Positions 1 to 62,670 of a stretch of 64,000 bases of DNA are shown in pieces. The stretch covers positions 310,001 through 374,000 of the forward strand of contig QPGO01000017.1 in assembly GCA_008632985.1 (NCBI GenBank), given 5' to 3'. The notes beneath the pieces are model-generated. The model saw only the letters and a list, made by a program, of their open reading frames with translations, had not been told where the DNA came from and did no database searches. Position numbers and translations under genes: made by a program. How positions within the stretch are numbered: the stretch's first letter is position 1; every line of letters starts with the position of its first letter. Origin of the DNA: Psammoneis japonica (lineage: Eukaryota).

Positions 1-7
1 ATCCACA

Positions 8-1955
8 GAGAAGACAGCAATTGCCCAGTGTTCTCAGCACTCTTCCTCAAGCAAGATGACACCAAGATTCTGCAAGCAAGACACACTTCCAACTCAGATT
101 GTTGAAACATGAAATCAAGTCACTCTGACAGGTGCTTGCACTTGTCTCTTGGTGCCAGAGAAGCTGGGGAGCTCTGACTTTCAACTGGGCTGCATTCTGT
201 GTGTCCTTCAACTGCCAACTGAAGCAGCTTTTGCTGACAGGTGCAATCAAAGGAAAGGTGGTGTGTGCACAATGAATGGATCCTTCAAAGATTCTTGAGC
301 AACAGCAGCAACTCCCTTCCCTTGGCCACCACACTCACAGATGCAAAAGGGGGAGGACCCAAACTCCAAGACAAAAGGTCAACCCAGCACCAGCACTGCA
401 CTGGGGAGAACTTGATGGCATTTTTGGTGCATTGCATCATCCAACCTTTCTGTGCCAATGTTGCCAGATCCAGAAAAGAAAACAGCAAACCTGGGATGCA
501 ATTGTTGTGTGACCCTCCAGGCATCATGATTTCAACAACCCCGCACAAAGAAGCCACACCCTCATCTTGCCAATTCAAACGTTGAACCGGCAAGTCAATG
601 TTGCCAAAAAGAAATCCTGTCAAGCTTCCTGTGTTGCTTGAAACACTTGCCTTGGTGGTCTGTGTGATGGCTGTGGGTTGTGGAAGGCATCAATGTAAAC
701 TGGTGAAGACTTGTGCGACAACATGCACATGCCAACGCCAAACAACAAATCATGCAATCCAAATGATTCACTCCAAAAAGTGAGATGAAATGACAAAGGC
801 AAGAAATTGGTTGATGGCAAAACTGGTCTTGCAATGAGTTGCCCAGCAGTGAGCCACGTCAAAAGTCAAGTGTCTTTTCTCCAACTTGCTGGGGGGGGGG
901 CTTGTGATCTCTGTTTTCTGGGTCTTCTGTGCTGCAGCTCCAACATCAATTGGTGTCATCTGAGCCACTCACCAGCTCATGTTGTCCCTTGAAAGTTCAA
1001 AGGACACAGAGGCAAAAAGAGGCTCTGTTGCATGAGGAACCCTTGGAAGTGCAGCAACAACTCAATGTCAAGATGGATTTTCTGGCAAAGGCATGCCAGA
1101 AATCACCAAATGTGGTGCTGAATGTGGGGCTTTGAATGCTCTGAACAAGAAAAGCACAGCACATTGGCCTTCAAGGTGCAGCTCTGAAGCATCTTAGGGC
1201 CAGTGTGCTGAAAATTCTGTGTGTGGCTGCAGGGTGCTGCTGCACCAACACAGGCAAATTTTCAAACAAGTTGAGCATGAGGGAAAGGTGCAACTGCACT
1301 GCAAACTTGGTCATTCATTGGGATGTTGAAGACAAATGCATTCATTGCCCAGTGCATGAGTTGCAGAGCTTGCACATGGAGCTCTGCAGGCCCATGTCAC
1401 ACAAAATCCCACCACCTGGCTGGGGGCTGGAGTGTGTGCGCAACACTGCAGACATGTTTGGAGAGATGAGGTGCACAGGACTCAGATGGCTGCCAGCCAC
1501 CAGATCTCATTCAGCAATTGCAGAACATTGCAAGAGACACACAGAGATGTTGAACATGTGTTGCTGACTCACCCACCACTCAGAACCTGTGCTTGCAGAG
1601 CAGCACTGTTGGACAATGCAGGAGGAGGTTTTGATTGAAGAGGAAGAAGGGGAGAGTGTGCATGCTCATCAGCACAAGAACCAGCATGCCGCCCATCTTC
1701 ACCATCTCATGAGACAGCATTCCAGATCCTTGGAGCTGGTCCAAGCCACAGATGTTGACTTCAACTGACAATGGCTCAAACAAGCCACATTTGCAGATGA
1801 GCACAAAGGCTGCACTTGGCCAAAATGCGGGTTGGCTGGCAAGCCAACTGTGTGACTGCATGTTGCCAATCTGCCCCAAACAACCAATCGCTCACAGCAT
1901 TGTGGTTGTGCATTTGCTTTGACACTCTGCACCCATCCATGATTGTCAGGACTGT
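8..1955 (+). repeat. Diverged direct repeat, copy A (paralogous to 4860-6605)
   Basis: Collinear blocks: 8-290 ~ 4860-5200; 507-575 ~ 5208-5275; 952-1640 ~ 5302-5995; 1645-1955 ~ 6280-6605. Shared strings include gcaagcaagacacacttccaact and gcattgtggttgtgcatttgctttga. Confidence 0.85.
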
Positions 1956-2399
1956 CAGGCAAGACGAGCCAAGAGGGATTGAAGAATTGAACATTGAGAA
2001 TGTTTTCATTCACCAGCTTTGCATGCCTGTTGTTCATCGTGATGTTTGCCCCATTCACCAGCAATTGTGTCTTCTCTTGCTTGCATTGCCTGACTTAGAT
2101 GGCAGGATGACAAGTGAACATTTGCACCCCGGGGCAGCAAAGCACCCTGCAGCCAATCACCGGGCAGGGTGCCAGACATCACAAAGATGTCAAGCACACA
2201 CATTGGCATCAATGCGCACTTGGCTCCCACCACCCGCCACTGCCTGTTGAGATGATGTGGCACTGACAACTGACAAACACTCATAAAATGAAAGCCACAA
2301 AACTGCTTTTTGTGAACAAGTGCTGTTGTGTCAAATGCAGGACCAACATGAAGTTCAGCAAGGGAGTGATCAAAGCCCTGATGAGGGAAGACTTGATGA

Positions 2400-2600
2400 T
2401 GACAATTTTGCAGAGATGGAGCACATCTTTGGGATGAACAAGCAACAAAGAAACAAAAATTGTTGGCTCCAGCAGCAGATGAAATGGGGCTGCAACAATC
2501 ATGTCAAAATGCTCTGCAACACCAATGAATTCCAGAACTGGCACCACATGAAGGGAGAGACATTCAACGCAAATTGTTCAAGTCAATTGCAGACACATCA
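2400..2600 (+). mobile_element. Degenerate PIF/Harbinger-like transposase N-terminal fragment
   Basis: Reads MKW..NHVKMLCNTNEFQNWHHMKGETFNA, resembling the W..HV..L....F..(R)YRM...F motif recalled for Harbinger transposase N-termini once CA/TG changes are reverted. The DDE core was not seen. Confidence 0.45.
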
Positions 2601-4859
2601 GCTGGAACATTTTTTTAAACAGCATGTTGTGGATTGGGCAACCAGTGACATGCAATGCAACCACTGCTGGTGTGCAGATTGCTCTCAGATGAACTCACTG
2701 TCCAATTGACACGACAATCATTTTAGATGATCTGCACTTGATTTTGACTTTGAGCATTGTTGTGCAGGTGATGCATCTGTGCAGCACACATTCTGATGGA
2801 CTGGTGGAACTGAATCTGCCAGTCTCCAACATGTGTGCTGCGACTGGCATTGCATCTGAGCCATGCTTTCTTGTCTTGAATCTCTTTGAGCTGGCAATTC
2901 AAATCTGTCCACTTCTCTTTTTTGTTTTCGATTTCTTTTTCCATCTCACAGATTTCTGGAAATGCAAACTTGTGCAAGTCAGGTTCATCACGCAAGCCAA
3001 CAGATTTGGTGTCAGGAGGCTTCGGGCAAAACACCACTCTCCTTCACCTTCTGGACCTTCAGAAACTTTTGGCACCACTGTTTGGCCTCTTTCTTGCCAT
3101 TGCTGCACTCAGCAGATGCATCTTTCCACAATTTCCTTTTGTGGGATGTTGGCACAATGATGTTGTCATTGACTTGATTGGAACAAGACTCCACAGCCAT
3201 GCCCAACTTGATTGCATCATTCTTGGAGCTCACAGACTCATTGAAGTCACTCCGTGGCTGCTCCATCCTTGGATGCCTTGTTTGATGCCTTTTGGGCTTC
3301 TTGGCATTGCCACCATTGTTGGCACTCGACTCAGGCGGCAATTTGCCTTTCAAGAATGAAACGAATGCTCAATTTGAGAGCACATGAATTCAGACAGAAC
3401 AATTGTGCTCACCAGCTCACCAGCCAGTTTCTCAAAGATGCCAGGAAACTGAAAAACAAACTTGTGAAAATGCAACAAGCAGTTGTTGTCATCAACAAAG
3501 TCAGCAAAAGGCTTTGTTGACTCCCTGCCTGCTTCATCATCTGGATCTTAAACCTCTCCATGCTTCACAGATGGCTTCCAGTTTTTGAGTGCATGCTTGT
3601 GTTCCTTCACACATGAAGCTGCCTTTGAGCTCAACAATCTTCTTGCATGGAGATTGTTTTGCAAGCTTTCAACCCTTTGGAATGTTGCAACAGGAAGCAA
3701 AGGCACACAGGCTGTCCTCAAGAAAGATGAGGTCCTGTGTTGCAACCCCCTTGACAGACACCAATTTGATGCAAGCCACTGATGCAGAGCTTTAGATTTT
3801 TTGGTGGGGGTTTCTTGATGGGGTTGGCAGCTGCTGCCAACACTTCAACATCTCCTGATGTGGCACCAGGTTGCCGCATTGTCTGCAAAGAGCAGATGAT
3901 GCAACCAAGGTGTTTTTTCAGCTGCAAACTCTGTTTGACTTGTTGAACATGCCAAGGACAAAAATTTGCTCCAATGGCACTCACCAAGAACTTTCAAAAG
4001 GTGTGTTTCAACTCTTGTGAAGAAATGCACTCAACAAGAGGTGGATGAACTCTGTGAAAATGAAGTGCCAGCACATGCCAGGCAAACTTGCTTGTGAAAA
4101 TGAAGTGCCAGTTTGTGCTGTTGTGATGCAACAACTCTGTTGTTCACAGATGGTCAAGACACATTGGCTGCTCCTCTAGGGTGCACCAGCCAAGCTGCTG
4201 CCAACACAAGGCTTGAGTGGCAGGAGGTGATGCCTTTTAGCTCTTTTTGACTGGCTTGAGTTGTCACACACACTGCTGCACTTGCACTGCTGCCTTTGGC
4301 AAGCATCGCAGCCCAGTGCAGTGCCAACACCTCAACCATTGGCACTGCTGCATCAACTGACAAGAAGTGCTGCATGATGAGCAGCTTGTGGGAGGTCTGG
4401 TTGACTTGCTGGAAAGCTCTGGCTTTTGCTCCATTGTTTGCACAAATTTGCTGCACCAACAGGAGGCCTGTCTCTGTCAGAACCACTGCCCAGAAGCACA
4501 GCTCCAGAAGCAAAAGGGGTGCACTGCCTGCAAAATGTGGCTTCAGAAGGAACCAGGAATTTCTCCTGTCTCACAACCTCAGGCAAGGTTGTTGTCATGG
4601 TTGACAACAGTGCAGGCACCATGATTCATTGTGGCTCAGCAACTGTTTCTTGTTTCTGAGGCCATTGTTGTGGATCAAAGCCCACTTGAAGACAGTCTCT
4701 TGGGTTTTCCTTCAGACTGGGGAGAAATGCAGTTGCATCAAATTGCTTGAGACCTTCCTGCCAGACATTCAACAAAGACTGAACTTTCAAGGCTTTGCAA
4801 GTGTTTGGTCAAAGCCAAAGTGCTTTGTCAGTCAGCATTGACAAGACTTCTAATCTTGT

Positions 4860-6605
4860 GAGAAGGCAGCAATTGTCAAGTGTTCTCAGCGCTCCTTTTC
4901 AAGCAACAACTCAGCACTCCTTTTCAAGCAAGAAAGAGAGAAAAGCAACTCAATTGCTGCACAAGCAGCACGCCATGATTTTGCAAGCAAGACACACTTC
5001 CAACTTAAATTGTTAAAACAAGAAATCAGGTTGCACTCTGCTGACTTGTGGCTGCTTGCACTTGTCTCCCACCAGAGGAGCTGAAAACATTTGACTTCAA
5101 TGCAGCTGCATTTTGTGTGACCTTCAATCATGACCAACTGAAGCAGCTGTTGCTGACAGGTGCAAGTGTGGGAAAGGTGCTGTGTGCACAATGGACAGTT
5201 CTCTCAAGGTGTGACCCTCAAGACATTGTCATTTCAATGACCCTGTGCAAAAGAGCCACATCCTCATCTTGCCCCCCCCCTCCCCCTCCCTCTTCAATGA
5301 GTGTCATCTGAGCCACCAGCTGCTGTCTTCCCTTGAGAGTTTAAAGGACACAGAGACAAGAAGAGATTCCATGGCATGAGGGAAGCTGTTGGAGAAATGC
5401 AACAACTCAATGTGTCAAGATGGTTTTTCTGGCAAAAGTGTGCAGGAAATCACCAAATGCAGGGCTGAATGTGTGGTGCTTTGAATGCTCAGAGCACAAG
5501 AGCAACATGGCTTGTCATCTGCCTTCAAGGTGCAGCTCTCAAGCATCTGGGGGCCAAAATGCTGAAGCTCATGTGAGGTGTGCCAACACAGGCAGACACA
5601 TTGTCAAAAAAGTTGAGCATGAGAATGAGGTGCAAATGTGCTGCAAACTTGGTCATGCACTTGGATGTTGAAGAAGACAAATGCACTCATCATCCAGTGC
5701 ATGAGCTGCAGAACTTTGACATGAAATTCTGTGGGCCCATGTGACACAGAGCCCTGCCTGGCCAGGGCTGGAGCAGTGTGCCAGACATGCAGGGACAGAG
5801 CAAGGAAGGAGCAGGTGTGCAGGAAGGATGCAGATGTGGCTGCCAGCTGCGAGGGGCTTCATTCAGCAATTGTTGTGGAACATTGCAAGGGACATGCAGA
5901 GATGTTGAAAATGTTTTGCTGACTCACCCACCTCTCAGAACCTGTGCTTGCAGAGAATTGTTGTCTGGATGATGCTGGGAGGCAGGATTTTTGACAGGAT
6001 TTGAACAAGATTTTAGTTTGTCACACACAATTGTGTGTGCTCTTGGTTCCACGCGCGCCGCGCAATGCAGTTTGCTTTCAAGCCGCTCGGCTCACAAGAA
6101 CAATGACAGCAGCACCGACATCATGACGCCAGTCTTTCGGCTCCTGCAATGGTCTCTGCATGGAGATTCATCTGCCATTTAGACAGCAGCAAGGAGTTGT
6201 TGTTTTCTTCCACCCAGTCATCTTCAATTTCTGTCAATTTCTGTCAATTTTGACAATTTTGACTCAAGAAGAGGAAAAGAAGGAGAGAGTGTGTTCTTGT
6301 GAACCCGCCCCATCAGGGAGCATTGACCAGCATGCCGCTCGTGTCTCTGCCATCTCATGAGATGGCACCCCAGATCCTTGGAACTGGCGCAAGAAGCTCC
6401 AGATGTTGATTTCATGTGACAATGGTTCAAAGCACACAGCATCTGCAGCACAAAGGCTGAACTTGGCGAAAATGCGGGTTGGCTGGAAAGCCAGCTGTGT
6501 GGCCACCTGTGTTGCTGAGCCTTCCAAGCCCCATACAGCAGATCTCTTTCCGCATTGTGGTTGTGCATTTGCTTTGATGCTCTGCACCCATCCATGATTG
6601 TTGGG
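4860..6605 (+). repeat. Diverged direct repeat, copy B (paralogous to 8-1955)
   Basis: Same collinear blocks as copy A; differences are frequently CA<->TG, TA<->CA/TG and CG<->CA/TG. Confidence 0.85.
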
Positions 6606-6869
6606 TTAAGGCCTGACTGAACCCAGATGATAGAGCAGGCGGCAGCTCTGATGAGGAGTCTGGCGGGCGCGTGCACGCTGTGCATGACACTTGCCCGACG
6701 CGACTACAAGTGCAGTATTTATTTGGGAGGTTGCGGGTTGCGGACCTCTCCAGAGCACACAGCACTCTGAAAAGACAGAAGACGGAAGGGGAAGAAGCGT
6801 CGGCATTAAGCAACTGGAGGTATTGCATTCCTCAAATACTAGTATGACTGTTTTTCTATTCCCAAGTCA

Positions 6870-7321
6870 GCTTCTTCACAGAACAACGGAAGCAAAATGG
6901 TTCCCACCGCAGACCGACGAATTTGAATCAAGGTGAGCGCGATAGTTGCTGAAAAATGATCCTTTGTTTTCATCATTGCAATGCTGACACTGGAGATACT
7001 CCCCCGAAATTGCCTTTGTCAAGTCTGGATGCACTCGAACGAGAAGAAGAGGCGTATGCAATGCGAATGCGTCGGATTGCACAAGCTTCTGCCCCCGACC
7101 CCATTGGTTTGGCATCCGCGAATAATGCCGGTGGATCACGTGGAGCAAATCAAGATGGTATCGACTCCACGGAACATTCGGTCGACGCTGCTACTCCCGT
7201 GAGTCTCCGACGGTTGTTATGGCATCAACGGCGTATGCAGAGCAATGAAAGTTCAGATGACGCAGACATTTCGAGCGAGACTGCCAGCAGAAGCCAACAA
7301 GAGTCACGTCGCTCGAGTTGA
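6870..7321 (+). CDS. Possible 3' exon(s) of an unknown gene abutting the mutated tract
   Basis: Open frame DTPPKLPLSSLDALEREEEAYAMRMRR...RRSS* preceded by a plausible gtgagc...ggag intron (6933-6995). No intact start identified. Confidence 0.3.
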
Positions 7322-8011
7322 GAACTTGAATAGTGTAGGCGTACTGTGTGCTTTGACTCGATTAATTTTTCTCAATTCCCAAGGCCTATGTACATACAAG
7401 TGCGGCCATCTCAATCGGTTCTTTTACTGTACTGTATGAGGAAGATCTGACTTGTTCTGAAGCAAACTGAAAACATTCTGTTTCTAATGTTGTACTGGCT
7501 GGAAGTTCAAAACATCCGACAAAGAAACAACTTTACAATGATAGACTGGTTATTTCTATAGTGTCGAATCTTTGGCTGACCGGAAATCCCAAGAAGAAAC
7601 ATTGTCTCTAGAGAGTATATTCATTGAAAAGGCCGTCCACTAAAGGCCGGATTTTGTTGGGAGGTACACGTAGTCCTTCCTAGCTCTTTTTTACTGCTAG
7701 TTGAAGCATTGCTAATTGAACGAGAAACATTTCACCAGTGCCGACTTTTTTAATTCCTGCAACATGAGATCAAAAATGGTAGGATTGTGCACAGCGAACG
7801 CAAGTAGGAACTAGGGAGGAATGCTCTAAAAAGAGCTTGTTCCGGTAGACTACAGAACGCAGTCTTAAGTCCCTACCACGAAAGCATCCCCGAGGTTCAG
7901 CTGTATCTGAAGCACCAACCAATTTACAGAGGTAAATACTGTGGTGCATTCACGAGGTAAGACTGAGCAACAGTGAGAAAGACGTTTCATCGTGATGTTT
8001 CATTATAGAGT

Positions 8012-10880: not shown

Positions 10881-12464
10881 CTAGAGCGAGAAGCGACAAA
10901 GCTCTTGACATGAACCCTGTGCACACGATGTCACCTTTTCGTGACACCAACACAAGAGAGCTTGGTCTGCAGCCACATCAAAGTCAATCACCGCAAGCCT
11001 TTCGGACTCTCCAAGACAACGTTTCATTTGCGACTGAAGTCGTTTCATTGCTGGGCTGTTATTCAGCTTGCTTTGCACGCCTGTAAAGCATACTGTGGAC
11101 GTGTCTTTGTCGTCACACCAGCCGGTACTCTGACTTATCGCCTGGCTGGCACTCTCTGTCACCAAGAGACGTTTCCAGTGTTGTCCCGGTTCCGGCTCTA
11201 TGCTTTCAATCTGCAATCTTAAAATGTCTGCTATTGCGGACCGATCCAGAGGTGCAAACGGGATCACTGCATCAAACGACTATTACAGAAAGTTAGTAAG
11301 CATGGGCGTGTTGTGTACAATTAACAAAAGTGACGTCTGAAAACTCACCACTGTTGTGCCTTCCTTCTCGTATTGTCCAAAGAACGCGTTAACTTCGCGC
11401 TCAACAGATCCAAAATCTTGTGCAACAACGTCATTGCCAATATTGGTAGTAAAGATGAAAACAACCTTGTCTAGATCAAAGTTGGCCGTGCTTGGAGCTC
11501 TTGCCAACTGGCATAGCCACTGAACGAGAACCGGTGGCATCTTTTCAACGTGACGAACAATAATCACAGCTCCATTGCCTCTTTGTCTCTGTACATGATG
11601 GCCAATACTCTTTGAAATAGCATCAATAGTACCGCGTTGCTTGTCTGACTAAAGTCCCCGCCTTGCAGAACGAGGACGCGGTCGTTAATTTCGGCCGAGT
11701 CACCTTCATGGCATTGTTGAAATAGTAGAGAACTACTTGTCGTGCCATTTCCGTTTTACCACCGGAACCAGCAAAGAGAAGCATCAAGGAGAGTGACTGC
11801 TGTTGTCGGTGTTGTCCCGAGCATTTGTCATAGCAGAAGTAACCATTGACACCGCCTTTGGTTGCTGCACCATTCGTTCAGACAACCACTCCTCTATGAA
11901 ATCTGAAGATGACGGAATCATTAGAGGGCAAATATTTCGTCGCCGATCTATCCATCCCGCTTGCCACTGCCGAATAGTATCACTCCATCCCAAAACATCT
12001 TCTCGCAATCCAATCATGCACCACGACAAGGCGTACGACAAGGCATATGCAAAAGATTTTGTTGAAGATACGATCCCTTCTACCTCAGCAAGTATGAATT
12101 CAGACCATATTTGAGGTGTACCTTGTGGGTTTGGGGGAGGCGCCGGTGGCCCATACTGAGCAATCAAACCGGCGACAACCACGACAAGCATCGTCACGAA
12201 CCAGACATGAGTAGATTTGCTCCTTTGGGTAGTAGGATACGAAGCCTCTGAATAGATTTCATGATCCATGGGCGACTGCACCAAGTAAATCGAGCCAATG
12301 TTACTTCCATCATATGTAGTGAGGCGAGAGCTTTCAATCGCACCTTGCTGGAAAGAATTCAGACTTGCTGCAGCAGTACGCATCGTGCCACGAGATGCAT
12401 CAGTACTTTGCTCATCTTCGTCATCTTCTGCCAAATCAACCTCATCAACATGAAATCGTACCAT
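10881..12464 (-). CDS. Membrane-anchored torsin/ClpB-D2-like AAA+ fold protein with degenerate Walker motifs (several frameshifts, one intron near 11280-11350)
   Basis: Acidic N-terminus; TM segment WFVTMLVVVVAGLIAQY; LSERMVQQPKAV; (P)LMLLFAGSGGKTEMARQV; AVIIVRHVEKMPP; KVVFIFTTNIG; FDAVIPFAPL. Confidence 0.6.
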
Positions 12465-25579: not shown

Positions 25580-28500
25580 ATGAGAGTCGGTGTGTGTGCA
25601 GCACTAGTTTTCGCCTCCTTTGCCTGCGCACAAACAAATTCCGTAGACGAAAAAGGAGTAATCGGCGAACGAACACGTAAAGTGGACTCTCATCAGGCGT
25701 CACTTTTTAGTCTTGAGGGCGGGAATCTGGAAGAAGTGAAGGTAACAGAAAGTCACATCCTCGAAGATTTGACAAGTAAATCTGGACAGTCCGGTGAGGG
25801 TGAGACAAGAGACATAGTTACGTCTCTTGACCGAGACCTTGCGCGACGAGATCTTGGCGATCGTTATCGTCCTCGAGCAGAAGGAAAGCAGCGGAAACGG
25901 ATTCGACATCACATTCTAGGCGGAAGTGGAATCGACGCCCCTCCGGAATGCTCCTGTCCGTACCCTGGAAGCTCAAGGAAGGGTGGCAGGGCAACAAGTG
26001 TGAGAAAGAAAGGAAAAAGCAGTGGCGCAGAGGAAAGGGCAAGAAAAGCGGCCACAGAAACCGAGCTCTTCAACGATTTGATGAATTGAAGTCCATCTTC
26101 TCTCGAAACAGACAGCGCGAATCTCCAAGGGAGCGGAATGAACCTGGTAGATCGGACCTTTATGACAAGTATGAAGATGAAGAAGATAGGAAAGCTTATC
26201 CCATATGCAAGAATGTCATATGGCTCTGTCCTGGAGAGAAACCAGATGGTGGCGCCTTTTTGCGTTGCCCTTCCTCTAAAAGAATCAACCGGAAAGGCAG
26301 AAAACAAGGTAGCGGAAAAAGCGTATTGTACCCAAGCCCTTTACCCGTTGTGAGGTATCTTCCCAAGAACCATCCACAATGTCAATGTCCGGATGATTTT
26401 GGACCTCAACCGAATAAACGTCGACCAGTTTACCCAGCTCCAGCCCCGTACAGGTATGAGAAGGACAGAGGACAAGGGAAAGAAAGACGATACCATGCGA
26501 AGGGCGGAAAGAGATCCCACGGGAAATATCCAAAAAAGGGGAAAAAAGGCTATAGTAAGTCGAAGAGAAAGAAAGGATTCATGGGAAAAGGTTTCATCAA
26601 ACATAAACCATCACGGTGCCCAACCCCGCCCCCCAAAACATTTTCACCTACTGAGACACCGACTGAAACGCCGACTGAGTTTCCGACGGCAATGCCACCC
26701 TTACCACCTGGAGTTCCAACGCAAAGTCCAGCACCTCCATCACAGAGCCCGGCACCAAGTATGAGTCCCACGGAAATCCCACCATTGCCTCCGGTTTCGC
26801 CGCCCACACCTGCCCCGAGCTCCAGTCCCGTCCCCAGCAAATCACCAAGTGCTTCACCAAGTGCAAGTCCAGCACCAAGCGATTCTCCCAGTTCAGAGCC
26901 GAGCGTCAGTTTAGCTCCGTCAGAATCAATAATTTGCGAAGTTGAAGTGAGTACTGATACAGCAGCCAAAATTTATTTATCCTTCAAGCTACAACTCACG
27001 AACTCAAACTCGATCTCCAATTTCTTTTGCAAATTGTCAACAGGTCGAAATAACTTGCACGACCGGCGAAGGCGACCTCGAGCAAAACTGCACCGACATT
27101 ACAAGTCCAGATTCGCAGTGCGTAGGATACTCGAACTTGAAGTTCATTTTTGAACCACGCTCCTGCGCAGAAGCAACTAACTCACAAGGTCAGACCAGCG
27201 TTTGTGAGGAAGAAAACGGTGGTATCCCTGGAATGAATGACACAGTTCAAGTTGTCTGCATTGAGAAAGATACGAATAACACCCTTTTCAATGATCAGGT
27301 TGCAAAAGACGACATGGTCCAGTTCTCCGACGTTCCCAGCTCCGTTGAATGTGCCATTAGGAATGCCGCGAACCAGACCATACTTTATCAAAGGGTGACC
27401 TTCATGACTGACGAACCTTTCAACTTGCTCCTAAATGATGAATATGGAAGTCTGACTCTCAAGGGCTGCACAGATGAAAGTCAACCACCCCGACAGTGTT
27501 TGATCGACGTTGACTATTTGATTACAGTCGAAAACGTGGGAAGCGAGAACATGACGATAAAGCAAGCAGACCTGATACTGGACGACATGGAAACCATTGA
27601 TTTGCGCCCTGAGCTAGATACGGAACTGGCACCAGACCAAATCACAAATACCACAGAGACAGTGACTATCGACATTTGCGTTGAGGCCAACTACACAGCC
27701 AAGGCTGAGGTGGAAGCTAATCCGCCGTTCGGTCCGAATACCTGTGAAGACGAAGATGATTATGTCATTGAAACAGATCCCTTACCGACACCATCCCCGA
27801 CACCAGTGCCGTCACAGACGCCAAGCCAGTCTCCTACAGCGATACCACCCCTGCCCCCTCCACCACCCTCCGCATCACCCTCCCGTAGCCCGGCTCCAAG
27901 TGACTATCCAAGTGCAGTACCCAGCTCAAGCCCGGTGCCAAGTCAATCGCCGAGCGCCGAGCCAAGCGAAAGTCCAGCACCAAGCAATACGCCAAGCAAC
28001 AAGCCAAGTGCCAGTCCCGCCCCGAGTTCGCCCCCCAGTAACGCTCCGAGCTCGAGTCCGGCACCGACGACTCATGCTAGTAGTCCACCTAGCTCAAGTC
28101 CGGCTCCAAGTGATTCGCCAAGTGCAGCTCCTAGTTCAAGCCCAGCACCGAGTGATGCACCAAGCAACGTGCCAAGCGCGAGTCCTGCCCCCAGCAAAGC
28201 TCCAAGTAACATGCCAAGCGAAAGTCCTGCTCCTAGCAATGAGCCAAGCACCGAGCCAAGTGCAAGTCCTGCCCCGAGTTCGCCCCCCAGTAACGCTCCG
28301 AGCTCGAGTCCGGCACCGACGACTCATGCTAGTAGTCCCCCAAGCTCTAGTCCAGCGCCGAGCAATTCGCCCAGTGCAGCCCCTAGTTCAAGCCCAGCAC
28401 CAAGTGATTCCCCCAGTTCGGAGCCGAGCGTCAGTTTAGCTCCGTCGGAATCTATTGAATGTGACGTCGAGGTAAGTTTTGATATCCCAAACGAACCCAT

Positions 28501-31500
28501 CCTTGACGATGAAGCTTGTAACATAAACCTTTTTCTCCAATTTCGTTTGAAAATTAACAACAGGTCGAAATAACCTGCACGACGGGCGAAGGCGACCTCG
28601 AGCAAAACTGCACCGACATTACAAGTCCGGAATCGCAGGTAGCAGGTTTTTCGAACTTAACTTTCATCTACGACCCACGTTCTTGCGCGGAAGCAACGAA
28701 CTCACAAAGTCAGACTAGCATTTGCGAGGAAGATAACGGTGGTATCCCTGGAAACAATGACACAGTTCAAGTTGTCTGCACCGATGAAGATACAGACAAT
28801 ACTCTTTTTAACGATCAGGTTGACAAAGGCGACACGGTCGAACTCTCCAACGTTCCTAGCTCCGTTGAATGTACCATCAGAAATGCCACGAATCAGACCA
28901 TAGTTTATCAAAGGGTGACCTTCATGACTGATGAACCCTTCAACTTGCTTCTCAACGATGAATATGGGAGTCTGACGCTCAAGGGTGGCACGGATGCGGA
29001 TCAACCACCCCGAGAGTGTTTGATCGACGTTGACTACTTGATAACAGTCAAAAACGTGGGAACTGATAACATGACGATAGAGCAAGCAGACCTGATACTG
29101 GACGACATGGAAACCATTGATTTGCGCCCTGAGCTAGATACGGAACTGGCACCAGACCAAACCACTGATACCACAAAGACAGTGACTATCGATATTTGCG
29201 TTGAGGCCAACTATACAGCCAAGGCTGAGGTGGAAGCTAACCCGCCGTTCGGTCCAAATACCTGTGAAGACGAGGATGATTACGTCATTGAAACAGATCC
29301 GTTGCCCACACCACGCCCGACGCCGGCACCGTCACAGACGCCGAGCCTGACTCCAAGTGAATCGCCAAGTGCCAGTCCAGCCCCTAGTTCATCACCGAGT
29401 AACGCTCCGAGCACAAGTCCAGAACCTACAGTCCATGCGAGTAGTCCACCTAGCTCAAGTCCGGCTCCGAGTGATTCGCCAAGTGCAGCTCCTAGTTCAA
29501 GCCCAGCACCGAGTGATGCACCAAGCAACGTGCCAAGCGCGAGTCCTGCCCCCAGCAAAGAGCCAAGCGCCGAGCCAAGTGCCAGTCCAGCCCCAAGCAA
29601 TGCGCCAAGCACCGAGCCAAGTGAGAGTCCCGCCCCGAGTTCGGCACCCAGTAATGCTCCGAGCTCGAGTCCAGCACCGACGACTCATGGTAGTAGTCCA
29701 CCTAGCTCAAGTCCGGCTCCAAGTGAATCGCCAAGTGCAGCTCCTAGTTCAAGCCCAGCACCGAGTGATGCACCAAGCAACGTGCCAAGCGCGAGTCCTG
29801 CCCCCAGCAAAGAGCCAAGCGCCGAGCCAAGTGCCAGTCCAGCTCCAAGCAATGCGCCAAGTACCGAGCCAAGTACCAGTCCCGCCCCGAGTTCGGCACC
29901 CAGTAATGCTCCGAGCTCGAGTCCGGCACCGACGACTCATGGTAGTAGTCCACCTAGCTCAAGTCCGGCTCCAAGTGAATCGCCAAGTGCAGCTCCTAGT
30001 TCAAGCCCAGCACCGAGTGATGCACCAAGCAACGTGCCAAGCGCGAGTCCTGCCCCAGCAAAGAGCCAAGCGCCGAGCCAAGTGCCAGTCCAGCTCCAAG
30101 CAATGCGCCAAGTACCGAGCCAAGTACCAGTCCCGCCCCGAGTTCGGCACCCAGTAACGCCCCGAGCTCGAGTCCGGCACCGACAACTCATGGTAGTAGT
30201 CCACCTAGCTCGAGTCCGGCTCCGAGTGATTCTCCAAGTGCAGCTCCCGCGCCATCACAGGCCCCAAGCAGTTCTCCAACAGAAATGCCTTTGATCCCCC
30301 CTGCTATACCCACTCCCCCACCTTCTGTTAGCCCGGCTCCTAGTGACCACCCTAGCGCAGCACCCAGCTCAAGCCCGGTGCCAAGTCAAGAGCCAAGCGC
30401 CGAGCCAAGTGCCAGTCCAGCTCCAAGCAATGCGCCAAGCACCGAGCCAAGTACCAGTCCCGCCCCGAGTTCGGCACCCAGTAACGCTCCGAGCTCGAGT
30501 CCGGCACCGACGACTCATGGTAGTAGTCCACCTAGCTCAAGTCCGGCTCCGAGTGATTCGCCAAGTGCAGCTCCTAGTTCAAGCCCAGCCCCAAGTGATG
30601 CACCAAGCAACGTGCCAAGCGCGAGTCCTGTCCCCAGCAAAGAGCCAAGCGCCGAGCCAAGTGCCAGTCCAGCTCCAAGCAATGCGCCAAGCACCGAGCC
30701 AAGTACCAGTCCCGCCCCGAGTTCGGCACCCAGTAACGCTCCGAGCTCGAGTCCGGCACCGACGACTCATGGTAGTAGTCCACCTAGCTCAAGTCCGGCT
30801 CCGAGTGATTCGCCAAGTGCAGCTCCTAGTTCAAGCCCAGCACCGAGTGATGCACCAAGCAACGTGCCAAGCGCGAGTCCTGCCCCCAGCAAAGAGCCGA
30901 GCGCCGAGCCAAGTGCCAGTCCAGCTCCAAGCAATGCGCCAAGCACCGAGCCAAGTACCAGTCCCGCCCCGAGTTCGGCACCCAGTAATGCTCCGAGCTC
31001 GAGTCCGGCACCGACGACTCATGGTAGTAGTCCACCTAGCTCAAGTCCGGCTCCAAGTGAATCGCCAAGTGCAGCTCCTAGTTCAAGCCCAGCACCGAGT
31101 GATGCACCAAGCAACGTGCCAAGCGCGAGTCCTGCCCCCAGCAAAGAGCCAAGCGCCGAGCCAAGTGCCAGTCCAGCTCCAAGCAATGCGCCAAGTACCG
31201 AGCCAAGTACCAGTCCCGCCCCGAGTTCGGCACCCAGTAACGCCCCGAGCTCGAGTCCGGCACCGACAACTCATGGTAGTAGTCCACCTAGCTCGAGTCC
31301 GGCTCCGAGTGATTCTCCAAGTGCAGCTCCTAGTTTAAGCGCAGCACCAAGTGATTCTCCCAGTTCGGAGCCGAGCGTCAGTTTAGCTCCGTCGGAATCT
31401 ATTGAATGCGACGTCGAGGTAAGTTTTGATATCCCAAACGAACCCATCCTTGACGATGAAGCTTGTAACATAAACCTTTTTCTCCAATTTCGTTTGAAAA

Positions 31501-34500
31501 TCGACAACAGGTCGAAATAACCTGCACGACGGGCGAAGGCGACCTCGAGCAAAACTGCACCGACATTACAAGTCCGGAATCGCAGGTAGCAGGTTTTTCG
31601 AACTTAACTTTCATCTACGACCCACGTTCTTGCGCGGAAGCAACGAACTCACAAAGTCAGACTAGCATTTGCGAGGAAGATAACGGTGGTATCCCTGGAA
31701 ACAATGACACAGTTCAAGTTGTCTGCACCGATGAAGATACAGACAACACTCTTTTTAACGATCAGGTTGACAAAGGCGACACGGTCGAACTCTCCAACGT
31801 TCCTAGCTCCGTTGAATGTACCATCAGAAATGCCACGAATCAGACCATAGTTTATCAAAGGGTGACCTTCATGACTGATGAACCCTTCAACTTGCTTCTC
31901 AACGATGAATATGGGAGTCTGACGCTCAAGGGTGGCACGGATGCGGATCAACCACCCCGAGAGTGTTTGATCGACGTTGACTACTTGATAACAGTCAAAA
32001 ACGTGGGAACTGATAACATGACGATAGAGCAAGCAGACCTGATACTGGACGACATGGAAACCATTGATTTGCGCCCTGAGCTAGATACGGAACTGGCACC
32101 AGACCAAACCACTGATACCACAGAGACAGTGACTATCGATATTTGCATTGAGGCCAACTATACAGCCAAGGCTGAGGTGGAAGCTAACCCGCCGTTCGGT
32201 CCAAATACCTGTGAAGACGAGGATGATTACGTCATTGAAACAGATCCGTTGCCCACACCACGCCCGACGCCGGCACCGTCACAGACGCCAAGCCTGTCTC
32301 CAAGTGAATCACCAAGTGCAAGTCCAGCTCCTAGTTCATCGCCGAGTAACGCTCCGAGCACAAGTCCGGCACCCACAGTCCATGCGAGTGTCCCCTAGCT
32401 CCAGTCCGGCTCCGAGTGATTCGCCAAGTGCAGCACCTAGTTTAAGCCCGGCACCAAGTGATTCTCCTAGCCATGCACCAAGCTCAAGCCCGGCACCGAG
32501 TGAAGTTCCAAGCAACATGCCAAGCGCAAGTCCCGCCCCAAGCAATGCGCCAAGCACCGAGCCAAGTGAGAGTCCCGCCCCGAGTTCCGCGCCGAGTAAC
32601 GCTCCTAGCGCCAGTCCGGCGCCTACAGTTCATGATAGTGCTGCCCCAAGCTCAAGTCCGGCTCCAAGTGATTCTCCAAGTGCAGCACCTAGCAAAAGCC
32701 CCGTGCCGAGCGATTCTCCTAGTCAAACACCAAGTTCAAGTCCGGAACCGAGCAAAGCTCCAAGCAGCATGCCAAGCGCAAGTCCCGCACCGAGCAGCAC
32801 GCCAAGTGCCGAGCCAAGTGCCAGTCCAGCGCCGAGTTCGGCTCCGAGTAATGCTCCGAGCTCGAGTCCTGCACCTACAGTCCATGCGAGTGCTGTCCCG
32901 AGCTCCAGTCCGGCTCCAAGTGATTCACCAAGTGCAGCACCAAGTTCAAGCCCAGCGCCGAGCGATTCTCCTAGTCAAGCACCAAGTTCAAGTCCGGAAC
33001 CGAGCAAAGCTCCAAGCAGCATGCCAAGCGCAAGTCCCGCACCGAGCAGCACACCAAGTGCCGAGCCAAGTGCCAGTCCAGCGCCGAGTTTCGCTCCGAG
33101 TAATGCTCCGAGCTCGAGTCCTGCACCTACAGTCCATGCGAGTGCTGTCCCGAGCTCCAGTCCGGCTCCAAGTGATTCGCCAAGTGCGGCACCAAGTTCA
33201 AGCCCAGCACCGAGCGATTCTCCTAGTCAAGCACCAAGTTCAAGTCCGGAACCGAGCGAAGCTCCAAGTAACATGCCAAGCGCAAGTCCAGCCCCAAGCA
33301 GCACGCCAAGTGCCGAACCAAGTGAGAGTCCCGCTCCGAGTTCGACACCGAGTAACGCTCCTAGCGCCAGTCCGGCGCCTACAGTTCATGATAGTGCTGC
33401 CCCAAGCTCAAGCCCGGCTCCAAGTGATTCTCCAAGTGCAGCACCTAGCAGAAGCCCAGCACCGAGCGATTCTCCTAGTCAAACACCAAGTTCAAGTCCG
33501 GAACCGAGCAAAGCTCCAAGCAACTTGCCAAGCGCAAGTCCCGCACCGAGCAGCACGCCAAGTGCCGAGCCAAGTGCCAGTCCAGCGCCGAGTTCGGCTC
33601 CGAGTAATGCTCCGAGCTCGAGTCCGGCACCTACAGTCCATGCGAGTGATGCACCAAGCTCTAGTCCGGCTCCGAGTGATTCTCCAAGTGCAGCCCCTAG
33701 TTCAAGCCCGGCACCTAGTGATTCTCCTAGCGAAGCGCCCAGCTCCAGTCCGGCTCCCAGTGACAAACCAAGTGCGGCCCCTAGCTCAAGCCCGGCACCG
33801 AGCAATTCTCCTAGCCAAGCACCGAGTTCAAGCCCGGCACCAAGCGATGCTCCGAGCAACATACCAAGCGCAAGTCCTGCTCCAAGCAGCACGCCAAGTA
33901 CCGAGCCAAGTGCCAGTCCCGCCCCTAGCTCGGCGCCGAGTAACGCTCCGAGCTCCAGCCCGGCGCCTACGGTCCATGCCAGTAACGCACCAAGCTCTAG
34001 TCCGGCTCCGAGTGCCTCTCCAAGTGCAGCACCTAGTTCAAGCCCCGCACCGAGTGAAGCGCCAAGTCGAGCTCCGAGTGCAAGCCCAGCACCAAGTGAT
34101 ACGCCAAGCAACATTCCTAGTGCTAGTCCTGCTCCGAGCTCTAGTCCCAGCGAGAGTCCAAGTGCCAGCCCGGCTCCTAGTTCAGTACCTAGTTCGGCGC
34201 CAAGTTCCAGTCCGGCACCTAGTGATGTCCCAAGCGCATCACCCAGCTCCAGCCCTGCTCCCAGTGCATCTCCTAGTGCATTTCCAAGTGCGAGTCCTGC
34301 ACCCAGTTTCGTTCCAAGCTCGCGTCCCAGTGCTAGTCCCGAACCAAGTGCAATACCCAGCATGGCTCCTTCTGTACCTGCAGTTTGCGATGTCGATGTG
34401 AGTGTGATCAATGCATATAGTGAAAACCCATTTTTCATTTTTCGTTGCTCACCTCGTTTCACCCTTGTTGTGTTTCATTTACAGGTGAATCTAAACTGCA

Positions 34501-35525
34501 CTTACAACGACCAAGATTGTGAGGACATTGAACCTCCTGAGGACCCACAATGCGCGGGCTATTCCAACTTGACGTTTACGTTTGAACCTCGGAAATGTAT
34601 AGATCAGCAGAATTCCCAAGGCGACAAGTGCATATGCGTTGACTACAATGATTTTGATCCAAATCCATTGGCATTCTATCGCCTGAAATGCGTTGGTACT
34701 CCCGGAAGCTCGACGATCTTACCAACTCGCATGGTCCAACCCGGAGATGTGATTACACTAGTGGACGTCACAACTCACGTGTTTTGCACTTTTTCCGCAC
34801 CGAATACCAACAAGGTATTCCAGACGGTGGAGTTTGACACCGCGCCAGCATTCGAAAATGACATGCTCGACCTGCTCTTGAAAGATCAAGTAGGCAGTCT
34901 CACATTGGTCGGCTGTGAGGATGAAGGTGATGAAGCAGGAGACCCGAAGAGTTGCTTGATTGACATTGTATACGGTATCGCCATCATTAATATTGGCGAT
35001 ATTGAAATGGATATCACGACGGCGTGGCTGATCTTGACTACAATGACGGAAATGATGAATGTCACAGTGCCCGAAGATCTCCGTCCACTTCTGCCGAAGC
35101 TCAACCTTCAAATTGGCGATGTTGTAAGCACATCAGTGCCCAAGGAAATCGATATTTGCATTTATGCCAAACACACCGCCGAGGTCTTTGTTGAAGCGCT
35201 GCCTCCATACGGTGGTATCGAATGTCGGGCCAACGACACGATCGAATTCGAGACTGATCCATTGCCAACCCGAGCGCCCACGCCGGTCCCGAGTCTAAGC
35301 CCGTCCGAAGTTCCGTCTGCCAGTCCAGCTCCAAGTGAGACACCTAGTTCGATGCCAAGCTTAAGTTTGATGCCAACTGAGTGCCAGGGTATATCGCTTG
35401 AGTTGAGACAGTTTCTCATTGACAACAACGGCACGGACTTTCTTCTACGCCCCCCTTCTCGCGGTCGCTACCTGAGAGGATTGAACGACGAAAGGAAGTT
35501 GTTATGCGACAACGAAAACAACTAG
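25580..35525 (+). CDS. Very large secreted protein: signal peptide, Lys/Arg/Gly-rich N-region, four Cys-rich globular modules separated by Ser/Pro/Ala mucin-like repeats
   Basis: Signal MRVGVCAALVFASFACA. Modules at ~26935, 28460, 31407 and 34386, each opening with C(E/D)V(E/D)|V across an intron (26947-27043, 28472-28563, 31419-31510, 34398-34484). PSxSPAPS repeats. Frameshifts near 25990, 30052 and 32390. Confidence 0.85.
28430..32390 (+). repeat. Near-identical internal duplication of intron + module (28430-29440 vs 31377-32387, offset 2947 bp)
   Basis: Introns gtaagttttgatatcccaaacg...caacag are almost identical; modules differ by only a few codons. Confidence 0.92.
29420..31340 (+). repeat. 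Coding tandem repeat, 252-bp (84-aa) higher-order unit built from PSxxPSxSPA sub-units
   Basis: The anchor gactcatggtagtagtccacctagctc recurs at 252-bp spacing; ORF-track duplicates at 30574/30826/31078 and 29492/29744. Confidence 0.92.
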
Positions 35526-46206: not shown

Positions 46207-48215
46207 ATGGACCTCTTCCTATTCATTTTCATCACTCTCTTTGCCACCGCCATCGTTATTAATGTTGTGGCTTTGATCTGCAAGCGTGCCGTCAACGCCA
46301 TGTTTGCCGTCTTGGTCGCGTTGAAGCGAAACTCGATGCTTTCCAAAGTCGCCAAAGTGGGCACGATTCAAGCCCGTCCATTCCAAGAGACCTTATTGCT
46401 GAATACGATTGACGACGACAAGCACACGCGCTTCTTTTCTCCCGAGGCATGGCTCGAAGAACACATCAAGAAACTCTGCAGCCTTGCCGCCAAAACCCGT
46501 AAAGACCATATCGCCAAGCTTCCAACGCTCGTGAACGAGTCATTCGCTCGAGGCCTCAAGAACTTCCACATCAAGGCCAAGAAGTTTGTCAAGTTGGATG
46601 CGCATATCAACAATGCTGTCATCACCAGAGCTGCGAGCTGTGCACCGACTGGGTTGCTCCCGGTTGTCGATGGCGTGGAGTTTGCAATCACGTTGACGAA
46701 AAACAAACACGTCCAAAAGATTCAGTCAGCCATTGTCAATGCCATAAAAGGCCTCTTCACGAAATGCAGCAACATCAAAGTGAGCGTCCTGTTTGAGCAC
46801 CGCGACAAACTTTGCTCTCTCTCGGTGGTGGTCGTGTTGAGATTGGCTCTCCAACGCAAGAATTCCTGGGCGCCAAGCAACTTGTCACGATACCTTCATG
46901 CTGTATCTGAGACGGGGCCTCAAGTTGTTGATCGCGCGCCATTGATTTCTCCTTCGACCGCATCCGCCGCTCAAGCCGTCGAAGAAACAAGCGCAACTCC
47001 TTCAAACATTGCAACTCCTTCGGATGAACCTGTGGCAGCTCCGCCAGAAACTGTAATCTCCTTGGGTGCACCTGCTGCGGCTCCGACGGAAAATGTTAGC
47101 CGTGTGACACCGACTCCTTCGTCTCATTTGTCGGATGCACCCAGTGTGGCTTCAGAAGAAGAAATTGATCAATCCGGTGATGAACCCAGCGCCGTTCCGT
47201 CAGAACCCGCGAATCCTTCAGACGAACCTGTGGATGCTCCGTCAGAAGCTGTTGATCATTTGTCATTGGCCCCTCTGCCACTGTTGTCGTCGGGGCCAAC
47301 TGGGCTAACACGAAAGCACTCGAAGAAAACAAAAGTGACCAAGAACGGTTGCAGAGTCAATCCAAAGACAGCCAATTCTTCCACGTTGCTAGCCCGGATC
47401 CGTGAGAACAAGGAGAAACAAGCAGCGAAGCGTCGATCCGAGTCGCGCGAAAGGAAAAGGAGCTAGACGGAAAGCAGTTGGGGCAGTCCCTTCGAAGACG
47501 CTGACTGTGATGCCAGAAGAACCGCGTGCTCCCGTCCCATTGAGGCCTCGTTCGACTCCGTGCACTGCTCTAGCTGGCGACGATCCAGGCAACGTTACAT
47601 TTGAAATGACGACTCCCTCGGATGCCCGATTGGTTGCGTCAGAAGTCATTGATGATCGAATTCCGTCCATGCCGTCGTTGACCGTGTCCGCAGATCTAGA
47701 CGGCGATGAGACAAGCGACGGTCCGTCAGAAACTGCAATCTCGTGGGAACACCTGCTGTGGCTCCGACAGAAAATGCAAGTCATGTGACACAGACTCCTT
47801 CGTCCGTTCCGTGGATGCACCCAGTGTGATTCCACAAGAAGAAATTAGTGCTGTCCCATCGACACCTCCTTCGACAGCACCCGCAGCTCGAGCTAGAACG
47901 CGCACCGTCAAGCGACGGACGGTTTTGAAAAAGGAGCTGCACCGTGAACAACGACGAGCTTTCAAATCCATCAAAAGATACCATCAAGCCGGATTGTTTG
48001 CCTCGCCAAAGAACATTCGCGGGGGATTCATTGATATGAGCAGGATGAAACCAAATATGAAATTTCGTCCTTCCAAGCTTTACTTGGAATCTGTTCATAC
48101 ATCTCACAAAACCAAACGATTCCAAGTCGTCCAACGAAGGAGAGAAAGAAAATGCGGGCGTCTTGTCAAGATCCACACATGTCTCCTAAGTCCAAGGCGT
48201 TCAAAAGCAACTTGA
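46207..48215 (+). CDS. Orphan protein: N-terminal hydrophobic segment, Pro/Ser/Ala-rich middle with internal duplication, basic C-terminus (frameshifted)
   Basis: Long ORF 46207-47466 continuing in shifted frames to 48215; 47040-47166 is repeated at 47723-47847. No family recognised. Confidence 0.5.
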
Positions 48216-60904: not shown

Positions 60905-62670
60905 CGGAGTTTCAATTCAAGCCATCGTCAGCTGATGCATGCGCTCGTTGCTTGCTTTGGTTTTTTTTTTTGTGGAGGCATCCAGTCTGTGCCACGTCCG
61001 TGGTTCATGTCTTCTGGCTTCTGATCGTGTTGAAGAATCCACAGCCGCACACCAACCGCATGCATCAGCATGAAAAGTGGGACGGCTCTTTGTTGAGGTC
61101 ACCTTGCTGGTCCAACAAGATGTGCACAGCCGCCATTTTTTGTTTGGCTTTGAGCTTTGAGCACGTTGGCGATGACTCACACGCTCATCTGGAGGAGCTG
61201 CTTTGAAAACTCTGTGCTGTGTGCCAACTGCAGTCTGACAATTTGCGACAATTAGCAGGACAATGCAGAGTGCAATGCTGTGCATGCACACACTGTGACA
61301 AAACAAGCTGCAACTTTGGCTCGCCACAGCTGTGCTGCGCAGCAATGCTGCTGTGCTGGGGGAACAAAAGGCAAATGACCATGGCTTGAACTTTTGACTC
61401 ACAACCAAAGAATGATTGCCACAATTGATGCCATTAAAGTGACAGATGATTTGAAGGTCAAAAGTTTTGTCCGGTCTTCACCACCATGGAGCTCAACTGA
61501 AGTTGTTTCAGCCACCTGCACATCGTGAGACACAAATCCTCAGCTTTGCCCTGAGGACACATCAAAGTTGTGGCTTCTGTGGAACTTCCAAAGTCACATG
61601 TTCAACACACTGGATGTTTCAAATCCCTGGCCACACTCTGCTTTGCAAACATTGCCAAAAAGGGCTTTTGAGAAGGGGAGAAATGTTTGTTGACATCACA
61701 CAGAGGATCACGGAAGAGGGGAGGACAAAAGAACAGCTCAAAGAGTTTGATGCAGCAAAAAGAGCTGCCCCAAGCTAAAACAACACTGATGAGCAACAAA
61801 GATGCATGCCCACAAATGCGCTGGCCGGAGCTCCATGGGGCAAGCAAGCTTCTCTGCACACCCATGTGACCCCACTCCCACTGATTTCAGCTGACCTGTG
61901 GCTCTGGCAGAGCTCACAAAATGCCATGAAAACACAACAGAACATTCTGTCTTTGTCCAATGGCAAAGTGTCAACAGCTGTGTTCACTGCCAGCCACAGG
62001 AAAGTGAGAACACTGAGACAAATTTGGCGTGCCAACATTTGTGCAGGAAATCAACATGATGTTGCTGCTCTCTCTTTCATCATGGATGACAGCACATCAT
62101 GTCCTGGTCTTGCCACAAAATGCAGCATGTGTCATCTCTCTCAACTCACAATTGTGAATGGGAATGTCAGCCATTGCCAGTGAGAAAAAGTGATGAAAGC
62201 TTGTTGGCGGTGGGAAAGAAGAGCCGGTGCAAAAGAAGCCAAGAGACGAGGCACAAAACAATGTGCTTTTTCAGAGAGAGGCAGAATGTCTTGATGTGGT
62301 CTTTCAACAGACTGCACAGTTGCTGAGAGCTTCAAATGCATTGTTGGAAGCTGTTGCTGGTCACGGGTGTTGCCACGTTCTCTTGGCAGATTTTGGGGTG
62401 TGAAAGTTTTGTGAGTTGCTGAAGTGCCTTTGCAAAGTCAAAACCCAAAACTGTTGCAGCAGCTCACATGTGGCAGCCAGAAGCACTGGGGTGAGCATTG
62501 GTTGCTTCTCAACACGGCCAAGGTTTTGTGCAGCTGCCATGAAAAAATCACGGCAGCAGGTGATCAAATCGTGGCATGCTTTGTGTGGTTGTTCTGAGAA
62601 CTGACATTGTTGAATGAAAACTGCTCTCTTTGAATTGACTGCTTTTGCAGGGAAGAAACCACTGGAGAGT
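60905..62670. other. Second TpA-depleted, partly CpG-depleted hypermutated tract
   Basis: Only three TpA seen in ~1.77 kb (ttag ~61253, ttaa ~61435, ctaa ~61776), and none between ~61780 and 62670. Confidence 0.9.

Follow-up and report, generated by a model that had tools for sequence, protein, structure and literature searches.

RIP of ascomycetes is a premeiotic, RID/DNMT4-dependent process that is set off by duplication, whatever the sequence, and turns CpA into TpA by transitions, and deamination of 5-methylcytosine at CpG turns CG into TG or CA. In the chlorarachniophyte Bigelowiella natans, hypermutation of TpA to TpG or CpA was described from mutation-accumulation lines, where it affects two integrated viral regions (Mettrop et al., bioRxiv 10.64898/2026.01.13.699255). 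According to the available parts of this preprint, the process is ongoing at a rate raised ~1000-fold and is active in only some lines; Rho for TpA in the viral regions is still 0.45, transposon domains are only hinted at, adenine deamination is proposed with an ADAT2-like enzyme as an unproven candidate, and the words "diatom" and "CpG" are absent from the main text in that available form (bioRxiv 10.64898/2026.01.13.699255). Diatoms have an RID-related DNMT4 without known function, and transposon methylation in Phaeodactylum is DNMT5-dependent; TpA goes unmentioned in the accessible sections of the paper concerned (PMC9998398). In the literature searched, outside of which lie most subscription papers, no paper on diatoms losing TpA was found. 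A TA-erasing mutation is described in that literature only from one unrelated alga, in the B. natans preprint.

The DNA analyzed here, referred to as the window, is a 64-kb stretch (positions 310001-374000) within the 91.4-Mb assembly of Psammoneis japonica. Its first bases belong to a TA/CG-depleted block ~25 kb long, which starts ~18.5 kb upstream of the window and has a sharp right edge near 6600-6700, beyond which the neighboring genes have normal TA.

1–6600, no strand: right-hand end of the TA/CG-depleted transposon debris, as defined by TA and CG counts and by the position of the edge

In bases 1-6600, TA occurs 17 times and CG 48 times, where 450 and 377 would be expected. Observed/expected ratios (o/e) in bases 1-6000 are 0.02-0.05 for TA and 0.03-0.15 for CG, while the later 2-kb bins have 0.27-0.82 and 0.54-1.17, respectively. 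Of the 17 TA counted above, 13 stand in a TTAA or CTAA/TTAG context, and one part of the depleted block has plentiful CG with TA nearly absent.

The likeness to B. natans, as far as the preprint is available, lies in an A:T>G:C change that is restricted to TpA, consists of transitions only, affects both strands and falls in regions of foreign or mobile DNA, leaving clusters poor in TpA and rich in CpA+TpG. There, the change was measured directly and in viral inserts, whereas here it is read from the sequence of a diatom, in LTR and DNA transposons; the diatom case also differs in the near-complete erasure (o/e 0.02-0.05), in being joined to CpG decay and in a flanking-base preference. What we found in common is the TpA restriction, the transitions with both outcomes and the confinement to mobile DNA. 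RIP and the diatom process both hypermutate mobile DNA by transitions, which in each case depend on a dinucleotide context and affect the two strands; however, RIP creates TpA from CpA and the diatom process removes TpA, i.e., instead of C:G>T:A at CpA with a gain of TpA, TpA is lost and conserved codons for His, Gln, Trp, and Cys have stayed intact. Decay of 5-methyl-CpG accounts for the other half of the signature, CG>TG/CA, and its excess is seen as 19% CG loss in young copies, as Arg changed to His or Cys, and as ~31x the background in the duplicated copies described below, but it cannot remove TA. Our main reading, to which we assign a probability of roughly 0.8, is that two context-specific processes operate in presumably silenced transposon domains, 5-methyl-CpG decay and a faster change of TA to TG or CA. 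The TA process runs in one direction, is restricted to TA, yields transitions only, acts on both strands and in LTR as well as DNA transposons, and stops at sharp domain limits.

Judged from the sequences, the direction from TA to TG/CA is plain. Between young pairs of copies, TA opposite CA/TG is one-sided (29:0 and 39:2), and differences at CG run in both directions (20:15 and 38:45). A three-copy comparison has 28/40 TA sites of one copy lost in both others, with discordant outcomes at 9/28 doubly lost TA sites versus 24/288 CA/TG sites (p 0.0008). For the protein level, 30 genomic Copia copies (of 40 listed, 90-94% identity) were compared with an outside reference, the best 120 of 574 homologous proteins. 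Tyr is present in at least 85% of these 120 homologues at 21 columns, one of which is Phe in this Copia family. The 451 conserved-Tyr cases in the 30 copies are Tyr 110 times, Cys 215 times, His 100 times and another residue 26 times, i.e., Cys or His at 315; please note that these are states and not independent events, since the copies share ancestry. Other conserved residues are kept, His at 409/409, Gln at 364/364, Trp at 348/349 and Cys at 52/53 (1173/1175 in total), and Arg is kept at 647/725, with conserved Arg changing to His or Cys. No conserved His or Gln codon has become TA in the 30 Copia copies compared with the 120 homologues, and TG>TA amounts to 2/958, lower than the other G>A rates.

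The specificity was counted in four partly overlapping alignments, with TA>TG at 85/131, AA>AG at 14/651, GA>GG at 15/793 and transversions at TA at 2/131; A>G at AT not preceded by T (32/496) mixes in CG decay and is left out of the argument. On average, the 30 copies have lost 74% of TA at 125 TA-origin columns and 19% of CG at 399 CG columns, and the two losses correlate over the copies (rho 0.49, p 0.006). A CG o/e of at least 0.6 is kept in 81 of 272 TA-poor bins, which is not a genome share, as the bins (up to 527) come from the window and from 20 selected stretches, mostly picked by repeat similarity. The affected elements are Copia (LTR) and a miniature DNA transposon. TA is retained at 64/86 in the window's tandem repeats of genic type, and two other duplications keep it too; being duplicated may therefore not suffice as a trigger, with coding selection confounding this control.

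TA is kept most in TTAA (0.54) and in CTAA/TTAG (0.27), and at 0.01-0.11 in the other eight contexts. The majority outcome obeys a 3' rank of Y>G>A in 45/64 columns (p 0.0016), i.e., the change usually hits the strand that has a pyrimidine 3' of the A. The ranking varies in detail between data sets; for example, the kept fraction of CTAC/GTAG is 0.06 by the end-state count and 0.33-0.40 in a young family, and the GTAA/TTAC direction is 6:25 in one data set and 100:98 in another. No strand-coordinated (processive) hits were detected in the 30 Copia copies, either for TA (p 0.07-0.36) or for CG.

As for the chemistry, we give about even odds to a TadA/ADAT-like enzyme that would be recruited to silenced chromatin and deaminate the A of TA to hypoxanthine, read as G. 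Such a candidate deaminase would prefer an A that is followed by a pyrimidine (TAC, TAT > TAG > TAA) and would hit sites singly, without strand-coordinated runs; silencing would guide the TA process to transposon domains, and its likely role would be the permanent inactivation of mobile DNA, chiefly through destruction of tyrosine codons. The TadA-type deaminase family has five matches in the genome, of which the four checked look like housekeeping members, and no expansion. The C5 DNA methyltransferase family has 27 genome matches (e.g., L093-L102), five of them near full length and several broken, seemingly many for a diatom. A search of the genome for Tet/JBP gave no match, the control being equally silent. 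The main rival for the chemistry is the same process with the lesion on thymine, e.g., oxidation to 5-formyluracil, which mispairs with G, favored in purine-T-A. T>C and A>G are one event seen on two strands and the context is equally readable as a 5' purine before T, such that a lesion on A and a lesion on the paired T would look identical in sequence. However, the strict transitions and the TA restriction suit deamination, and we rate a thymine lesion as unlikely, though a serious contender. The B. natans authors, in the available parts of their preprint, also prefer adenine deamination, as a hypothesis and not as a result (bioRxiv 10.64898/2026.01.13.699255).

The depleted block contains an old direct duplication, which had been singled out in the preliminary description for reciprocal CA/TG differences between its copies.

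8–1974, plus strand: copy A of the old direct duplication, aligned with copy B in five blocks of 73-90% identity
4860–6627, plus strand: copy B, the duplication partner, with 25 CA/TG swaps relative to A in the aligned blocks
3905–4454, plus strand: upstream part of the duplicated unit, matching the DNA just before the window start in blocks of 73% and 85% identity
5991–6236, no strand: small element of high copy number, present only in copy B, with 10 CG and 2 TA kept

Copy A's unit reaches ~213 bases upstream of the window start, and the 3905-4454 part is broken by ~350 bases. Just 1 CG and 1 TA occur in the 705 bases that precede the small element. The A/B alignment comprises 1351 columns in five blocks, with 149 transitions and 110 transversions. 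CA<->TG swaps make up 25/257 doublets versus 13/842 double transitions in the other three classes (Fisher p 1.7e-8), which bears out the expectation that they outnumber other double transitions when counted by dinucleotide context. The excess persists when columns near gaps are removed (19/193 pyrimidine-purine doublets versus 11/630, and 14/155 versus 8/489). Single-step differences are few, three of TA versus CA/TG and three of CG versus CA/TG; single transitions inside pyrimidine-purine steps thus number 6, compared with 47-74 for every other class. CA is on the copy A side at 18/25 swaps (p 0.04).

All 12 strings that the preliminary description quoted for the A/B differences were found at or near the positions given, the pairs (B versus A) being 5000/89, 5338/994, 4885/33, 6573/1918, 6359/1711, and 5234/532. 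Its range of 4995-5360 holds the copy B members of three of these six pairs, and the copy B members at 4885, 6359, and 6573 lie outside. Inside the range are six swaps and three TA sites.

5006–5007, no strand: TA in copy B, CA in copy A, TTAA context
5014–5015, no strand: TA in copy B, TG in copy A, TTAA context
5342–5343, no strand: TA in copy B, CA in copy A, TTAA context

These three TTAA sites may be survivors or new arrivals, which cannot be told apart. Short-read contigs match the window over 1-2353 with 0 differences and over 3263-6018 with 2, in a run that may be the source DNA and hence non-independent, the three sequencing runs listed all deriving from a single sample; the A/B differences are no assembly artefact. 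The two differing sites are as follows.

4177–4253, no strand: two sites in short-read contig versus window, TA versus TG (4178) and TG versus TA (4253)

They are a weak hint of ongoing activity, and weak because there are two events only and the genic part shows similar numbers of other full-depth differences.

Two genome searches gave no third close copy beyond A and B, and relatives elsewhere exist only for a ~200-bp transposon-related piece of the unit. The unit was also considered as a coding element; 15 reading frames gave nothing significant against Pfam, and a whole-library protein search gave three matches to repetitive proteins, which we judged to be chance. Between the copies, at 2380-2650, is a degraded reading frame without a Pfam match, which bears some resemblance to a Harbinger-type transposase.

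The origin of the swaps was modeled with four states (CA, TG, CG, and TA), assuming constant and site-homogeneous rates and taking as background the 65 transitions at about 546-563 sites outside pyrimidine-purine steps. Without hypermutation, 1.9 swaps are expected. A model with CG loss only and a free ancestor predicts 31 TA-versus-CA/TG differences, of which 3 are seen, and the model with CG and TA loss fits (LRT 48.6) at ~31x (CG) and ~96x (TA) the background. The swaps thus need rapid loss of both CG and TA, in agreement with the preliminary description, and CpG decay alone is rejected by the model as their source. According to the fitted model, CA and TG would be the sole stable pyrimidine-purine steps in an exhausted domain; an ordinary transition would produce a new TA or CG that is erased again, about half of the time into the opposite state, and recurrent cycling through such short-lived TA/CG would generate the CA/TG swaps between the old copies. 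Cycling leads to an expectation of about 25-28.5 swaps, i.e., 26.6 from an ancestor without CG/TA and 28.5 in the stationary state, against the 25 seen. Starting from an unmutated ancestor, the model predicts 67 and fits worse by 23 log units, and the deficit stays at 10 log units or more in all variants tried. The symmetric model does not predict the CA bias of copy A at the swaps.

A piece of each copy is related to a dispersed 390-bp family of miniature DNA transposons, which supplies some of the ancestral states.

1224–1432, minus strand: piece of copy A related to the 390-bp element, ~70-75% identity
5578–5784, minus strand: piece of copy B related to the 390-bp element, ~70-75% identity

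The family, which may be Sola-like, has 37 copies, often inside other elements, with terminal inverted repeats, GAC...GTC-type ends and 4-bp target duplications; one example is L048:2396-2787, in addition to 36 other places. Both outcomes, TG and CA, occur at 13/15 TA columns of the 390-bp element. Within the related piece, in small numbers and judged against distant relatives, A and B differ at 3/10 family-CG columns, at 2/11 likely TA-origin columns and at 1/17 single-state columns, and family-CG columns underlie 3/6 swaps.

These results bear on the dating in the preliminary description, according to which most A/B swaps descend from CG or TA that existed when the unit was duplicated and was later mutated on opposite strands in the two copies. 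The opposite-strand route from one ancestral TA or CG is indeed at work in young families, as the 9/28 discordant sites above indicate, half of the swaps in the transposon-related piece fall on family-CG columns, and with the background scaled to 0.7 or 0.5 the best-fitting ancestral share is 5-15% (10-15% when halved), with up to about half of the swaps then possibly coming from CG/TA present at the split. On the other hand, at the measured background, cycling alone would yield the 25 swaps, the best fit has no CG/TA left at the split, and A equals B at 9/11 likely TA-origin columns, although this comparison with further copies covers one piece only. As a date for A and B, the proposal of hits after duplication therefore does not hold in the fitted model, whose ancestor is already largely without TpA, the very state that the preliminary description had named as counting against itself; we consider it improbable that most swaps arose this way. 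Some CG and little TA may have outlived the duplication. Recurrent cycling, our preferred origin of the swaps, implies under the model that they require TA erasure and yet give no post-duplication date, and a CA/TG swap between old copies is alone no proof of an ancestral CG or TA.

Other sources of TA loss fare worse. Error-prone gap filling by a polymerase-eta-like enzyme during repair of deaminated 5-methylcytosine could spread A>G around CpG lesions, polymerase eta having a WA motif; the correlated TA and CG losses and the many C5 methyltransferase matches would fit, but AA>AG is at background level, TA transversions are 2/131, and TA loss is ~4x CG loss and near complete where CG is largely intact, which leaves this explanation with little credit. 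A-to-I editing of transposon RNA, fixed through reverse transcription, could account for Tyr>Cys (A>G) being twice Tyr>His on the Copia sense strand (215 versus 100), an excess that is also expected from the TAY preference. Editing of the RNA is very hard to reconcile with the His outcomes, which demand A>G on the other strand, with the mixed-debris domains affected in their entirety up to a sharp edge, and with the inverted-repeat DNA transposon with its 4-bp target duplications, whose two outcomes point to DNA, not RNA, as the substrate. CpG decay only (with elements TA-poor from the start or by selection), or fungal-type RIP with B's TA made by CA>TA, can cite the CG depletion and the three sites with TA in B opposite CA/TG in A, but is practically dismissed by the 31 TA differences predicted against 3 seen, by outside homologues having Tyr where the copies have Cys or His, by the conserved His and Gln codons that never become TA and by the low TG>TA rate.

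A wider hypothesis, which we put forward tentatively and with more doubt than confidence, is that diatoms possess a chromatin-guided DNA adenine editor as a defense, acting on T-A-pyrimidine in silenced domains, outpacing methyl-CpG decay, active in culture and sharing common descent with the chlorarachniophyte system. If true, stramenopiles and Rhizaria would share an ancient counterpart of RIP with reversed polarity, and nature would have its own adenine base editor for DNA; hardly any case is documented in which adenines of genomic DNA are naturally deaminated for defense. TpA hypermutation, so far tied to two viral inserts of a single alga, would be widened to transposon defense in a tractable, intron-poor diatom, whose genome lets the end state (o/e ~0.03), the flanking preference and the relation to CpG methylation be read. 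In such domains, the process would also distort the ages assigned to diatom transposons, the annotation of repeats and Cys/His-rich "genes".

Several further features of the window were observed. A second small depleted block at 61001-62500 has 3 TA and 22 CG per 1500 bases. TA is low (5-6 per 500 bases) with normal CG at 46501-48000, where there is overlap with an open frame of 487 aa and with a short duplication; an early stage of TA erasure or codon usage could explain this TA-poor stretch. Positions 25800-35500 are a long genic region of Pro/Ser tandem repeats, in which globular domains are duplicated and TA and CG are normal. Beside the block edge, at 6734-7662, a contig of run X2 (a run labeled "DNA?") omits 91 bases with GT..AG ends, which suggests a spliced gene adjoining the mutated domain; the same run has zero cover over 1-6538, which was not taken as evidence. 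Two-allele differences in short-read contigs are dense at 11533-11871, and the depleted block is almost without any. Among the window's proteins, uL15 is of eukaryotic type, another has full-length homologues named Thalassiosira exigua and Attheya sp., and a further one has nearest Atlas clusters that are mostly Bacillariophyta, the last two indicating a diatom. One of the outside Copia homologues, from a metagenome record (P0096), has 0.9% Tyr and 4.0% Cys, whereas the other homologues have 3.9% and ~1%; a second genome may thus have undergone the same loss of TA.
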